Shown here piece after piece: positions 4,375 to 61,484 of a stretch of DNA of 64,000 bases. Each line of letters starts with the position of its first letter. The stretch's first letter is position 1. Both the position numbers and the translations under genes were made by a program. The DNA lies in the NCBI GenBank assembly GCA_951406725.2, contig OX597815.1:185876001-185940000 (forward strand), in the 5' to 3' direction. Under the pieces are notes generated by a model. The model made no database searches and was not told the DNA's origin. It worked only from the letters and a program-made list of their open reading frames with translations. Origin of the DNA: Octopus vulgaris (Eukaryota).

Positions 4375-5480
4375 TTTTAAAGATTTCTGGTTTAGAAGTA
4401 GATTTCGGGTATATATATATTTCGGGTATACAAACATGTCAGGTATACAAATCTATTTCTTGTAGCTTTCAAAGATTTCGGGTATACAAAGATATCGGGT
4501 ATATAAAGATTTCGTGTATACAAAGATATCGGGTATATAAAGATTTCGGGTATGGAAAGTAGATTTCGGGTCTATAAAGATTTCGGGTACACAGACATGA
4601 CGGGTATACAAATCTATTTCTTGTAGCTTTCAAAGATTTCGGGTATACAAAGATATCGGGTATATAAAGATTTCGTGTATACAAAGATATCGGGTATATA
4701 AAGATTTCGGGTATGGAAAGTAGATTTCGGGTCTATAAAGATTTCGGGTACACAGACATGACGGGTATACAAAGCTTTCAAAGATTTTGGGTATACAAAG
4801 ATATCGGGTATATAAAGATTTCGTGTATAGAAAGATATCGGGTATATAAAGATTTCGGGTATGGAAAGTAGATTTCGGGTCTATAAAGATTTCGGGTACA
4901 CAGACATGACGGGTATACAAAGCTTTCAAAGATTTCGGGTATACAAAGATATCGGGTATGAAAAGTAAAGATTTCGTGTATACAAAGATATCGGGTATGG
5001 CAGAGTCGTTAGCACGCCGGGCGAAATCTTAGCGGTATTTCGTCTGTCGTTACGTTCTGAGTTCAAATTCCGCCGAGGTCGACTTTGCCGTTCATCCTTT
5101 CGGGGTCGATAAATTAAGTACCAGTTACGCACTGGAGTCGATATAATCGACTTAATCCCTATCATCAAGTTTACCTTTTGTGGCAACATTTAGCCCCTTG
5201 TGTGTAGTAAAGAAATGGGTATATAAAGATTTCGGGTCTATAAAGATTTCGGGTATACAGACATGCCGGTTATACAAATCTATTTCTTGTAGCTTTCAAA
5301 GATTTCGGGTATACAAAGATATCGGGTATATAAAGATTTCGTGTATACAGAGATATCGGGTATATAAAGATTTCGGGTATAGAAAGTAGATTTCGGGTAT
5401 ACAGACATGTCGGATATACAAATCTATTTCTTGTAGCTTTCAAAGATTTCGGGTATACAAAGATATCGGGTATGAAAAGT
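4375..5480. repeat. Minisatellite of ~17-bp units (aaagatWtcgggtataY) with 148-161-bp higher-order repeat
   Basis: Higher-order blocks start at 4469, 4630, 4778 and 4926. Confidence 0.93.
4999..5216 (+). mobile_element. SINE family A inserted in the satellite
   Basis: SINE A body flanked by gggtat on both sides. Confidence 0.9.
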
Positions 5481-10864: not shown

Positions 10865-11245
10865 TTAGCACGCCGGACGAAATTCTTAGCGGAATTTCGT
10901 CTGCCGATACGTTCTGAGTTCAAATTCCGCCGAGGTCGACTTTGCCTTTCATCCTTTCGGGGTCGATTAAATTAAGTACCGGTTACGTAATGGGGTCTAT
11001 ATAATCGACTTAATCCGTTTTTCTGTCCTTGTTTGTTCTCTCTGTGTTTAGCCCCTTGTGGGTAGTAAAGAAATAGGTATTTCGTCTGTCGCTACGTTCT
11101 GAGTTCAAATTCCGCCGAGGTCGACTTTGCCTTTCATCCTTTCGGAGTCGATGAATTAAATACCAGTTGCATACGGGGTCGATCTAATCGACTGGCCTCC
11201 TCCCCAAGACATGTCGGTCCTTGTGCCAAGAGTAGGAAAGAATAT
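10865..11245 (+). mobile_element. SINE A tandem: tail-1 copy joined to a head-less tail-2 copy
   Basis: Junction aaagaaata|ggtatttcgtctg at 11075/11076. Confidence 0.9.
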
Positions 11246-41284: not shown

Positions 41285-41925
41285 TTATTTCTTTATTACC
41301 CACTGAAGGTTAAACATAGAGGTGACAAACAAGGACAGACAAAGGGATTAAGTTGATTACATTGAGCCCAGTACGTAACTGGTACTTATTTAATCAACCC
41401 CGAAAAGGATTAAAGGCAAAGTTGACCTCAGCAGATTTTGAACTCAGAACGTAATGGCAGACAAAATACCGCTAAGCATTTCGCCCGGCGTGCTAATAAT
41501 TCTGCTAGCTTGCCACCCATGTTCATCAAAATATTTATTTCTTTATTGCCCATAGAGGGCTACACATAGAGGTGACAAACAAGGGCAGGCAAAGGAAATG
41601 TAACTGGTACTTGTTTAATCGACCCTGAAAGAATGAAAAACAATGTCGACCTCAGCGGAATTTGAACTCAGATCGTAATGGCAGATAAAATACCTATTTC
41701 TTTATTACCCACAAGGGGCTAAACACAGAGGGGACAAACAAGGACAGACAGACGGATTAAGCCGATTACATCGACCCCAGTACGTAACTGGTACTTATTT
41801 AATCGACCCCGAAAGGATGAACGGCAAAGTCGACCTCGGCGGAATTTGAACTCAGAATGTAGCGGCAGATGAAATACCGCTAAGCTTTTTACCCGGTGTG
41901 CTAACGCTCCTGTTAGTTTGCCACC
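41285..41925 (-). mobile_element. Cluster of three SINE A units
   Basis: Includes a tail|GGTAT junction at 41694/41695. Confidence 0.9.
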
Positions 41926-50805: not shown

Positions 50806-50954
50806 ATTCCGTGAGCACGGTTTTCATGGGTGTGTTGTGATTTTTTATGGTTTATAAACACCTTCCACACTGCAGTTGTTTTTGTTTCAGCACACGATCC
50901 CAGATCAGGTCACTTGCAATGCAAGTACATCTCCGTAATTATCTTAGTAATTTT

Positions 50955-51396
50955 TTTTCTACTCTAGGCAGAATCTTTGGGGAGTGGGGCAGTCGATGAG
51001 ATCGAACCAGTACGCAACTGGTACTTAATTTATTGACCCCGAAAGGATAAAAGGCAAAGTCGACCTCAGCGGAATTTGAACTCAGAACGTAAAAACAGAC
51101 GAAATACCTATTTCTTTACTACCCACAAGGGGCTAAACGTAGCGGCAGACGAAATACCTATTTCTATTTCTTTACTACCCACAAGGGGCTAAACACAGAG
51201 AGGACAAACAAGGACAGACAAACGGATTAAGTCGATTATATCGACCCTAGTGCGTAACTGGTACATATCTAATCGACCCCGAAATGATGAAAGGCAAAGT
51301 CGACCTCGGCGGAATTTGAACTCAGAACATAGCGGCAGGCGAAATACCGCTAAGCCTTTCGCCCGGCGTGCTAACCATTCTGCCAGCTTGCCGCTT
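50955..51396 (-). mobile_element. SINE A tandem array
   Basis: Tail|GGTAT junctions at 51108/51109 and 51158/51159; last unit has tail-2. Confidence 0.92.
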
Positions 51397-51414
51397 TACT
51401 AATATAGAATTCTT

Positions 51415-57930: not shown

Positions 57931-58399
57931 ATGCTTACTGCATACATTTGAATAATGGAGTAATGCTGAAAAAAAAAAAAGTAAAGGAATGTATTTTGAA
58001 AGTATTACTCAGATGGCCGGTTTCACTCGTGAGTGCCGTGAACCCGTTCACCTTCTTTTTATATCAGACTGATTTTAGAAGTTGTAAAGAGAGGTTGGTG
58101 GGGGTGGCGCAGACATTAACGGTAGAAGCAATAACAATGTTTGATTGACCTTCGCAAAGGTCTAGCGAACCCATGTTCGTGTTTTAGTAGTGATTGTTCT
58201 CACAGTGTAGGAAGGAGTTTCGTGACAAGCACGTAAGGTGAACTTTCCGGGCTCCTTACAAGCCAAACCCCTATATTATGATGAAAATGTGTAACTAATA
58301 CTGATGCCATACGTTTTAGTATATACAAGGGTAGGCTGAAATGTTCGTAGACTGGCTGTGAAGGAGTGATGCTAAAACTGTGAAATTTTGCAAGCATTA

Positions 58400-58740
58400 A
58401 CCCTTTCTATTATAGGCACATGGCCTGAAATTTGGGGGAGGGGCATAATCGACTACATCGACCCACTGGTACTTATTTTATCGATCCCGAAAGGATGAAA
58501 GGCAAAGTCGACCTCGGCAGAATTTGAACTCAGAACGTAGCGGCAGACGAAATACCAATTTCTTTACTACCCACAAGGGGCTAAACACAGAGAGGACAAA
58601 CAAGGACAGACAAACGGATTAAGTGGATTACATCGACTCCAGTGCGTAACTAGTACTTATTTAATCGACCCCGAAAGGATGAAAGGCAAAGTCGACCTCG
58701 GCGGAATTTGAACTCAGAACGTAGCGGCAGACGAAATACC
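58400..58740 (-). mobile_element. Two head-less SINE A units downstream of the Tx1-like element
   Basis: Both begin ggtatttcgtctgccgctacg; junction at 58556/58557. Confidence 0.92.
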
Positions 58741-58939
58741 AATTTCTTTATTGCCCACAGGAGGCCAAGCACAGACATGGAGACAAAACAACTGACTGAG
58801 ATCAGGAATACGTTATGATTTTACATAAAATATGAATATAAAAATTATATAAAATATTTTTAAAAAATCGAATGAAACTAACAATACAGAGACAACACCA
58901 ATGTAGCGATGATCAGATCACGCTCCGACCCCATAAGCC

Positions 58940-59548
58940 CCGATCTAATGCTGATACCTTTTTTTTTATTCTTCTTTTATAGCGTATTCACACGATTCCT
59001 TGCACGCACAACACTCGTGCAACATGCTTCCATCTCTTCTCCTGCCACACCTTCCTTTTCAAATGAAAAGTAAAAATGATCGTAAATCGTGGCCGGAGAT
59101 AAAGTTGCCTGTCTTAATCCCTTTTATCCTAGTCTTCCATACTGTCTTTTTCGCTATTGCTACAACCGTGAGAAAACAATTCTTACCTTCGTTAGATAAA
59201 ACTTCCAGTGGGTCAATTTTTATAATTGACTAAGTCGACAGCCACACACTACCTTAGCCGGACAACAGGTGTTCAGCATAAACCCACATTTCAGATATCT
59301 CCGGACACTGGACAATAGCGTAAGGGACGGTTTCTCTGTCTCCCCCGCATCTTGTAAGGGTCGGAGACTAACGCTTACCATGTCTTGCGAGCTTATCCCA
59401 AACGGGCAAGGCACCTCTGTAACATTAGCAGGGTTTCCGTTGCAAAAATCACATCCAATTTTCTTGACCTGATGTCATTCAGGAAGCGTCCTTGCTTCCA
59501 GCTAGACATCAGGCCACGAACATTTACACAACCAATGTGAATAAACAT
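58940..59548 (-). pseudogene. ORF2 remnant: APE endonuclease N-terminus fused to the C-terminal Cys-rich region
   Basis: MFIHIGCVNVRGL...KLDVIFATETLL (59548-59426), then CYRGALPV.DKL...RCGGDRETVPYAIVQCP...VAIAKKTVWKTRIKG. Confidence 0.85.
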
Positions 59549-59552
59549 AACT

Positions 59553-60851
59553 TACCTGTTAATCTGGGGTGTCTGGTGGAGAGGGACCCTCCACCTTTTC
59601 TTGACACAGGGTCGGAGTTGGCAAGTCTTGGAAAATAGATTGGTTAAAATCCTGCCTCATTACCGATACAGGCTTTCTATAAGTATTTAATAAAATATTA
59701 TGAGTCTTTTTATCCATTTCATATAGTTCACAATTTTTGTATTTGTCCGACAGTTCTGTTATCCCGGTAGCTGATTATTTAGTTTTTATCTCTCTCATTA
59801 AATCATCATTTTTGCTATGGAGTGCCACAATCCCTCTGGCCGCTACTTCTTTCCTTGTTATTTTTGGCTGGACTCTTTTTGCTGTTTTTTTCTCTTTTGG
59901 TCGTGATTCTACATGTTTTGGTTTTCATTTTCCATTTTTCTTTTGCTAGTAGCTTTCCTTTCTTCTGTTTGTTTTTCTTTCTCTTCCTCCTCATCTTCAG
60001 ATTCCTCCTCGCCTTCCTTACAGTATTTTCTATCTGGCCCAGCTGGCCACACTGAAAACATCGGGGTTACGCCCTTCGACAAAAACGTTGAGGAACTTCT
60101 CACCAACTTCTATTTTTTCTATAAGCTGTTCTAATACAGCCCGTTCCGTTTGAATTAACAGGTGGACCGTGTGGCCGGTTCAATTTGTCTTTACTGAAAC
60201 AGTAGCCTGAAGTATTGTTATCTCATCTACCCTTTCTGCTAGGACTGCCGCCATCAACCACATAGGGTCGACTTGAGGAGGACCTTTGGTATTCGTATTT
60301 TGGATGTCTTCACACCCATGTATATTAGTATTAAAATCACATCTGTTTCCAAAGATTTTACTGAGTGCGATTGTGCAGTTTCAATGTTTTTTAGGTGTAC
60401 CTCGATGGTACCGAATTTTTTCCCTCTGGCTATAGACATTTTTAAACTTTCTCCTCGCTTACTCGCTCGATTTTTCTTTCTTTTCGGCAGTATGTTTTAA
60501 ATATAATTGTTTTTTTTTTCTTCTCTGTCAATAAAAGCTCTTGTTGGGGTTGAACCTTGACAAGCCGTCTTGAATTTTTATAACATCCTTGCACATTAAA
60601 ACGTCATTTTTCTTCGTCGACAGTTGACGAGTTCAGTCACCAGCAGCAGACGCAAAACTTCTTTTCTGTTTACCCACCTCCGTTTGAAGTCTTTTCACTT
60701 CGACACTCTTCCCTGCAACGTCAGTCCTCGACAGTGGTGGGAATTCGCTCTCAGACAAATCCAAATCATCTTCCAATAATAATATTTTTTCCACTTTTTT
60801 GGCCTCTAAATCTTTCGAATACTCGTCAGATGAAAACAAGCTTTTTGGCAT
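59553..60851 (-). pseudogene. Frameshifted ORF1 (gag-like, zinc knuckle)
   Basis: MPKSLFSS..., IARGKKFGTIEV, VFVEGRNP-RCFQCGQLGQI-KYC, followed by a charged low-complexity tail. Confidence 0.75.
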
Positions 60852-61100
60852 TTTGCTTTTAATTAGTGTTTCCCCGTACAGAGGAAACCACAGTAGTTTT
60901 CAGAGAAAAACACAATAATTTTCAAACAAAAACTGTTATACAAATTTTAACAGGTACAGCAATTTAAACAGACAATAACACGGAAACAATCAACAGAAAT
61001 TACACTTACTATTTAGACGCACTTCAGTAATAATACCAAGACTTCCAACTCACACAGACGAACAACGGTTAAGCATTTCAAACGGCGTGCTAAAGTTTCT

Positions 61101-61333
61101 TATTTCTTTATTGCCCACAAGGGGCTAAACATAGAGGGGACAAACAAGGACAGACAAAGGGATTAAGTCGAGTAGATCGACCCCAGTGCGTAACTGGTAC
61201 TTAATTTATCGACCCCGAAAGGATGAAAGGCAAAGTCGACCTCGGCGGAATTTGAACTCAGAACATAGCGACAGACGAAATACGGCTACGCATTTCACCC
61301 GGCGTGCTAACGTTTCTGCCAGCTCGCCGCCTT
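61101..61333 (-). mobile_element. SINE A, full length
   Basis: Family match; its tail abuts another partial SINE A head at 61055-61100. Confidence 0.95.
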
Positions 61334-61484
61334 ATCTTGCAATGCATTAATTTCAATACTTCATATTAACTGAATGGTTTGTTTCCAGGTAAATTGGCAT
61401 TTGACTGTTCAAAAATTCTAGAAGTAACTATTAGTGACATCTCATGAAAATGGATAAAATTTGGCATCGTGGTATTATCAAGTA

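Follow-up and report, generated by a model that had tools for sequence, protein, structure and literature searches.

The window analysed here is a 64,000-nt stretch of the Octopus vulgaris genome (positions 185876001–185940000), and searches covered the genome at 2.8 Gb in 227 contigs. On the minus strand, a full SINE is followed by SINE positions 17–63, a 2314-bp LINE, SINE positions 50–232 and SINE positions 50–141, with numbering taken from the 234-nt window copy at 61333–61100. The first-pass annotation had described a SINE head fragment running into a 2.3-kb LINE derivative; we saw the same layout again, and the LINE ends were set by comparison with 8 other full-length copies and 39 other 3′ ends. 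Recounting confirmed the claimed 10 matches over 13 positions between the 13-mers flanking the LINE; few of the 5′ duplicates that we observed are as decayed as this one. Position 17, where the 17–63 fragment adjoins the full SINE, is a second site that recurs. The sequence of the fragment differs between the window and two other copies (L040 and L063), which places it outside the LINE and rules it out as a LINE component. A direct repeat with 15 of 17 matches encloses the whole array, and the 50–141 unit (58401–58556) is likely a remnant of the original host. The tail junction reported earlier in other SINE arrays of the window was found, as tail followed by GGTATTT, at 11076 (+) and at 41694, 51108, 51158 and 58556 (−).

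Table 1. Features of the LINE-bearing array and of other SINE arrays in the window. SINE positions refer to the 234-nt reference copy.
Feature	Coordinates	Strand	Evidence or remark
Outer direct repeat, upstream copy	61334..61350	-	15/17 vs 58400-58385
Full SINE, C-variant head, LINE-type tail	61100..61333	-	Abuts position 17 of next unit
Head of host SINE, positions 17-63, ending CGTTGTTCGTCTG	61055..61100	-	Varies among window, L040, L063
Target-site duplication, 5′ copy, decayed (10/13)	61055..61067	-	Better kept in 8 other full-length copies
Family-A L1/Tx1-group LINE (assigned from sequence), both ends kept	58741..61054	-	Two-block alignment to L040
ORF1, decayed, gag-like; CCHC knuckle remnant near 60060	59559..60851	-	Translations
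ORF2 start, first ~40 aa of APE endonuclease, stops at deletion junction	59430..59551	-	Relatives' endonuclease alignment
ORF2 C-terminal end, decayed, zf-RVT region	58990..59430	-	PF13966 in relatives
LINE 3′ tail, without poly(A), common to SINE	58741..58786	-	80% over 46 nt to SINE 190-232
Target-site duplication, 3′ copy, GGTATTTCGTCTG (SINE 50-62)	58728..58740	-	
SINE unit 50-232, LINE-type tail	58558..58740	-	Begins with GGTATTTCGTCTG
SINE unit 50-141, second unrelated tail type	~58400..58556	-	Junction at 58556
Outer direct repeat, downstream copy	58385..58400	-	15/17 vs 61350-61334
SINE-SINE array, tail-GGTATTT junction	10865..11242	+	
SINE-SINE array, tail-GGTATTT junction, further copy after	41285..41925	-	
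SINE-SINE array, tail-GGTATTT junction twice	50951..51397	-	

Relative to the ~5.15-kb full-length copy L040, the window LINE has lost ~2.8 kb of ORF2, including the entire reverse transcriptase (RT). A Pfam search of its ORF pieces gave no match in the three tried, and the zf-CCHC domain found in relatives L053, L138 and L152 was absent from the window ORF1 piece. A search of the genome for RT sequences, in which 150 of 32,480 candidates were scored, recovered younger relatives: family B, with 86% amino-acid identity to the window family (family A), and a more distant C group (72%). Copies of family B are 98.9% identical and 5.36 kb long with an open ORF2 of 1134 aa, in which APE endonuclease (PF03372), RT (PF00078) and zf-RVT (PF13966) domains all score above cut-off. 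In family-A pieces RT and zf-RVT lie above cut-off and the endonuclease just below it. Two ORFs, with a CCHC knuckle in ORF1, are a feature of the Tx1 clade. The ORF1 knuckle (PF00098) scored above cut-off in B (L138, L152) and below it in A (L053), and was absent from the single C1 ORF1 tried.

The best solved relative is human L1 ORF2 (221 bits over residues 6–868), with R2 at 76 bits, and the closest named protein to the LINE RT is from Argonauta hians (56–62% identity). ESM Atlas matches fell only in generic endonuclease-RT clusters. A quick 45-row tree groups families A and B as a clade (SH-aLRT 99) and A, B and C as another (100); P0001, the Argonauta protein, joins P0002 as sister to A+B+C (99). 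This LINE radiation is separate (99) from outgroup proteins bearing PF20049, which we take to be RTE-like. The tree held no true Tx1L or L1 sequence; P0136 (‘Transposon TX1’) was tried as a Tx1 reference and omitted, because it looked chimeric on search and its search returned another LINE clade. On domain content and best matches the intact relatives fall within the L1/Tx1 group, as the earlier proposal for RT placement had anticipated, and to judge from sequence the LINE belongs there; the narrower ‘Tx1’ label rests on architecture, the absence of poly(A) and target specificity, in a tree lacking Tx1L and L1 references.

We examined the target site of family A with a 220-nt LINE-only query from the 3′ end, scoring 40 of 266 candidate loci, the window included. 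A close variant of GGTATTT follows the LINE 3′ end in all 40 and none starts with C. At 37 of the 40, BLAST places the SINE body from position 50 immediately downstream; the three exceptions are a locus masked beyond GGTATT, a diverged locus and an interrupted one. The analysis of LINE 3′ flanks that had been set beforehand thus gave a non-random result for family A, and likewise for family B (30 of 30, below), and the claim that the LINE sits where the SINE also stacks upon itself was borne out. Both counts exceed the 20% of flanks with the same sequence above which the working rule of Kojima, as worded in the available text of PMC4494074, calls an element target-specific. One counter-example was seen, L241, whose LINE tail runs into GATATT and then non-SINE DNA. 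At the 5′ side, a 13-bp duplication is present in all 8 other full-length family-A copies. In a separate 5′-end search (22 rows) the 13-mer precedes the LINE start in 10 of 10 copies once the window itself, four duplicates and two rows that lack a 5′ end are set aside and a six-copy composite is counted as one. L142, L144 and the short copy L068 carry private variants on both flanks, which indicates that the duplicated bases derive from target DNA. Some family-A copies lie at SINE array junctions or inside other LINE junctions. A hairpin in the SINE head, considered as a required target feature, is not needed, with LINEs occupying tail-to-site junctions that lack its 5′ arm.

Family-A copies are 90.5% identical to one another as against 82.6% for their host SINEs (n = 33 of 40; the 7 with broken flanks were left out), and host tails (n = 40) are of the second type in 24, of the LINE type in 10 and unclear in 6. 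The 5′ side is broken in about 27 of the 40 copies, which lack a SINE head within ~7 kb. Composite 3′ transduction was tried as an explanation and rejected, since none of 23 broken copies tested has a duplication around LINE plus SINE. The broken 5′ sides likely reflect later decay, because internal deletions are frequent in family A, and copies that end within 1.5 kb number 18 of 40 in A but 1 of 30 in the young family B.

Family B occupies the same position in a different variant of the SINE head. Full-length copies make up 19 of the 20 long B loci; all 19 carry a 5′ duplication at SINE position 50 and are preceded by GCGTAGCC (or a one-base variant), not by GCTTAGCG. A B 3′-end search, overlapping these 20 loci (30 read of 40 scored), showed that the SINE continues in 30 of 30; the first base after the LINE is C in 29, and the remaining one reads as CpG decay. 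Exact intact SINE heads number 17,209 of C type and 21,013 of G type, so that C heads make up 45% and the chance of drawing 19 of 19 by head frequency is ~3e-7. Families A and B therefore split the site by its first base, A using G and B using C. The C variant comprises two changes, in which a T-G pair atop the hairpin becomes G-C; the 3′ arm of the hairpin is the duplicated 13-mer, and fold z-scores are −2.9 for the G head and −0.9 for the C head. Upstream of L200, a B copy truncated at the 5′ end, the head is still of C type, which argues that the variant belongs to the target; against this, the head upstream of the truncated copy L149 is G-like.

The 19 full-length B copies all have a SINE head on one side and position 50 on the other, and several have the host SINE's own duplication outside; this might suggest that a non-specific LINE spread together with head and SINE body as one composite element. 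We regard this as highly improbable, and the divergence contrast largely refutes it: B LINEs are 98.9% alike while host bodies are 90.8% (n = 29) and host heads 87.2% (n = 19) alike, so that in A and B hosts are ~8–12 points more diverged than the LINEs within them. LINE copies thus entered separate, older SINEs, and did so independently. Hosts also bear two tail types (in family B, the LINE-type tail in 26 of 30 and the second tail in 2 of 30), and the array and LINE junctions occupied by family A, together with the lack of an enclosing duplication in its broken copies, are further points against a composite.

The SINE itself was surveyed in 264 kb comprising the window, four neighbouring stretches and 16 stretches at round coordinates, of which only the window was chosen for its LINE. 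It accounts for 13.8 kb, or about 5%, of this DNA. By eye, and against the Pol III consensus, its head contains A- and B-box-like motifs, and the head ends pair like an acceptor stem; ARAGORN returned 0 genes and Rfam no tRNA. Ohshima and Okada reportedly described in 1994 the tRNA-derived octopus SINEs OK, OR1 and OR2, and the present SINE (SINE A) may be one of these. No SINE body position was clearly linked to the head variant, and C heads were found on none of 21 second-tail SINEs, although 2 of the 30 B hosts bear that tail. The idea that C heads are younger than G heads was unsupported (median pairwise 91.2% vs 90.7%; n = 17 and 35). The last 45 nt of 37 SINE tails match eight LINE subfamilies at 73–83% (C4 and C6, 83%; C1 and A, 80%; B, 75%), and this tail is common to the whole octopod LINE radiation. 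The SINE tail folds no better than shuffled sequences.

We then located the insertion sites of SINE tails in the same sample. A script gave 41 tails (18 at position 50, 5 at position 17 and 18 elsewhere), of which three rows were re-classed: one site-50 row was a LINE, another was a non-SINE site, and one ‘other’ row was site 50 after a short duplication. Of the resulting 40 tails, 17 are at position 50, 5 at position 17 and 18 elsewhere. Among the 18 dispersed tails, 13 have 10–14-nt duplications, two of these 13 being in simple or tandem repeats; the duplications show that target DNA supplies the base next to the last A of the tail. Dispersed flanks favour GGTAT (commonest, 10 of 51), TATAT and GATAT, a SINE preference that matches the family-A site.

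Genome-wide, a SINE tail followed directly by (G/C)GTATTTCGTCTG occurs as an exact junction 26,397 times, with a backwards control of 0. Only 299 of these junctions are of C type, as compared with 26,098 of G type, yet the C type makes up 45% of the exact intact heads. Self-targeting by the SINE is a preference rather than a rule, and is almost confined to the G variant; C heads are protected from SINE insertion, while their origin as a later escape is unsupported by divergence. A 22-nt tail pattern was also tried as a LINE counter and gave 166 matches, 88 of them followed by NGTATTT. The ratio is no measure of specificity: SINE tails account for 15 of the 20 non-matching cases that were read, other elements sharing the tail for 3 and LINEs for 2.

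Classical joints, in which a target-site duplication is followed by a SINE head, number 73 exact cases, ~0.3% of the 3′ junctions, and most arrays are therefore seamless. Five of five distinct classical nested loci that were read end in tail followed by GGTATTTCGT, with targets that are all G-type heads or junctions. A classical nested insertion, L247, retains both inner and outer duplications. Given this excess of seamless junctions, it could be argued that the LINE targets the SINE and that the arrays stem mostly from a few founder junctions multiplied by multimeric read-through or by unequal crossing-over of 184-bp units. Series of six junctions spaced 184 bp apart and sharing one tail variant are in keeping with this, as is a LINE-LINE composite found at 6 loci with the same private variant at its junction, and unequal recombination has been proposed for bivalve SINE arrays in the accessible part of PMC11481361. 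Of 26 pairs of adjacent array units, however, 18 stay within the 95th percentile for unrelated units and 8 lie above it (median 93.9% for adjacent, 92.1% for unrelated units). Junctions also join units of both tail types, the nested insertion at L247 is of the classical kind, and GGTAT is preferred by dispersed copies too. We therefore consider founder junctions a rather unlikely main source: local duplication contributes to arrays and does not account for most pairs.

Our preferred reading, which we consider probable, is that a target-specific LINE inserts at SINE position 50 and that the SINE is likely copied by LINE machinery, so that its copies add landing sites. Nick positions, tail recognition, mobilisation in trans and the resolution of 5′ joints by homology are proposed by analogy with target-primed reverse transcription. 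The ORF2 endonuclease would nick the bottom strand where (G/C)GTATTTCGTCTG begins on its left side; a second nick 13 nt away would yield the duplication. ORF2 would bind the ~45-nt tail and begin reverse transcription at its last base. SINE RNA bearing the tail would be taken in trans and more loosely, at flanks resembling GGTAT, GATAT or TATAT and often at the SINE's own site. The scarcity of classical 5′ joints calls for an annealing step, in which the cDNA of a SINE entering a SINE would usually pair with the matching head upstream to give seamless head-(body-tail)n arrays, some of which local duplication would extend.

The interpretation given in the first-pass annotation is supported, with qualifications. 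Its proposal that this particular LINE mobilises the SINE agrees with the common tail and with self-insertion, but the tail does not single out family A, as it fits C4 and C6 better. Since other members of the radiation match equally or better, family A may be the mobiliser only by inference, and the sequences point to the octopod radiation without pinning the role to one family. Its idea that each new SINE copy becomes a landing pad agrees with the 73 classical SINE-in-SINE joints; the SINE's use of its own site is a preference, with 18 of 40 tails elsewhere.

What determines target choice was addressed by comparing endonucleases. Loop roles were taken from the available text of PMC1950540 and mapped onto A and B by sequence motifs. 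Differences between B and A near predicted DNA-contact loops are fixed in 18–20 of 19–20 B copies, and the surface loop that follows YAPN differs among target groups; both favour control by the enzyme, and the A/B site difference would likely arise from these fixed surface-loop changes. Young C-group subfamilies, in contrast, have endonucleases 94–95% identical and unrelated 3′ flanks (17 loci compared, 1–6 per group), which favours control by read-through RNA. According to this alternative, a LINE without poly(A) reads into its host, the RNA pairs with the nicked strand of the target, and a lineage inherits the target of its source copy, down to the G or C letter, the endonuclease being fairly loose. 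L166, which is 74–75% identical to C1 and carries C1's flanking repeat, fits such guidance, as do the β-hairpin loop that is nearly invariant over A, B and C and the A/B switch in a single base, the first after the tail; a co-transcribed target strengthens specificity in R2/R1-type elements, according to the part of PMC4494074 available. Against guidance by RNA stand the YAPN-adjacent loop and the fixed B changes, the duplicated bases of L142, L144 and L068 that come from target DNA, and the few loci (1–6) behind each C-group target. RNA-guided homing is compatible with insertion at position 50 by a target-specific LINE, and we think it possible but unlikely.

A longer history can be offered tentatively and would be more doubtful than the target-specific insertion on which it builds. 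An octopod Tx1-type LINE would have targeted an older SINE; the SINE would have taken the LINE tail and inserted into itself until it reached ~5% of the genome; a compensatory change of two bases in the head hairpin would have immunised nearly half of the heads; and a young LINE family would have switched to the changed site, with targets inherited through read-through RNA, so that nearly identical enzymes could home to different repeats. The system offers a route by which one SINE family could reach ~5% of the sampled DNA with many of its insertions falling into its own copies, a safe-harbour strategy whose harbour would be built by the same machinery. Sister families that differ by one target base constitute a natural experiment on what sets the targets of APE-type LINEs, a question on which the near-identical endonucleases of young subfamilies with unrelated targets also bear. 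Open ORF2 frames in some copies make endonuclease and RNA control directly testable. Repeat annotation of octopods will mis-split SINE arrays of this kind.

A literature search, with Repbase Reports, subscription journals and bioRxiv supplements outside its scope, did not return a LINE that targets its own partner SINE or a description of the octopus system. An annotation of Octopus vulgaris lists 13 recently active L1-Tx1 families with 421 insertions, 2.29 Mb in all and ~5.4 kb each (PMC13282606, available text). These match family B and the C group in length. The words ‘target’ and ‘nested’ are absent from the main text of that paper, and a LINE-SINE pairing was not met in the text available. 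Tandem SINE arrays in bivalves, ascribed to recombination between duplications (PMC11481361), and SINE-derived satellites in squamates (PMC10702118) resemble the octopus arrays in having a complete first head and truncated later units; unlike in octopus, a target-specific partner LINE is not mentioned in the accessible portions of either paper. Among APE-type LINEs, Tx1L inserts into Tx1D in Xenopus, Keno into U2 snRNA genes and Kibi/Koshi into microsatellites (PMC4494074 and PMC1950540, parts available). They share with the octopus LINE sequence-specific insertion into a multicopy target, but their targets, as described there, are not produced by the LINE's own machinery.

The nearest known case is that of SINEU and Tx1-Mar in crocodilians, which share sites in Mariner-N4_AMi, with tandem SINEU-3 formed by sequential insertion (Kojima 2015, PMC4494074, available text). 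As set out there, both systems pair a Tx1-type LINE with a SINE at a common target in an abundant interspersed repeat, and both have two target hot spots, tandem SINEs and LINE families differing in site. The crocodilian pair, however, targets a third element, whereas in octopus the target is within the head of the SINE itself; the crocodilian SINE heads are U1/U2-derived, whereas the octopus SINE shares a recognisable LINE tail; and the octopus arrays are mostly seamless, with sister LINEs split by a one-base site variant. What is new in octopus is that the target is the partner SINE itself, genome-wide, with a one-base switch of target between sister families.

Besides the LINE target at position 50 of SINE A (numbered on the 234-nt window copy at 61333-61100, minus strand), position 17 is a second recurrent junction, seen at window 61100-61055 and at many other loci, where it follows either type of SINE tail (5 of 40 tails). 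SINE heads and bodies identical in kind carry, in addition to the LINE-type tail, a second and unrelated one (window 58401-58465 and many loci), often with ATT-type repeats directly after it. A partner LINE was sought for this second tail type and none was found.

At window 4378-5473 lies a 17-bp tandem repeat whose unit includes GGGTAT, and this motif is the insertion point of a SINE at 4998-5216. Elsewhere in the genome (G000), SINE parts are themselves amplified in tandem, as 64-bp head units at C10:17996024-17996501 and as 78-bp tail units at LINE locus L053.

A LINE-LINE composite occurs at six loci spread over three chromosomes (L092-L096, L105). A private junction variant is present in five of the six, and four share up to 2.8 kb of extra sequence, about 92% alike. 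Within the related C group, a single subfamily has an identical insertion point at six loci, judged by their 3′ flanks (L165, L167, L171-L173, L175): the point lies in ORF1-like sequence, now decayed, that belongs to a related LINE. Other C subfamilies insert into different repeats.

Near-identical C-group LINEs also form head-to-tail arrays with a spacing of about 5.28 kb (L156-L160), several members of which retain an open 1132-aa ORF2; the array on contig C27 holds at least six copies. At L161 (G000:C9:119210245) the C-group RT is covered by a 2499-aa open frame, and the normal 3′ end is absent within the stretch examined.

Locations of C-group LINE arrays in the octopus genome (G000)
Feature	Contig	Position (Mb)
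C-group LINE array	C27	32.95-32.99
C-group LINE array	C30	10.43-10.45
C-group LINE array	C22	
C-group LINE array	C24	
C-group LINE array	C58	

In family B, the young sister of the window LINE's family A, L189 and L190 (C3:153.11 Mb) are a tandem duplication with a 6.45-kb unit comprising a B LINE and its host SINE. Family B ORF2 has GDSN at residue 143 in each of the 19 copies that span this position, and family A mostly has GDFN there.
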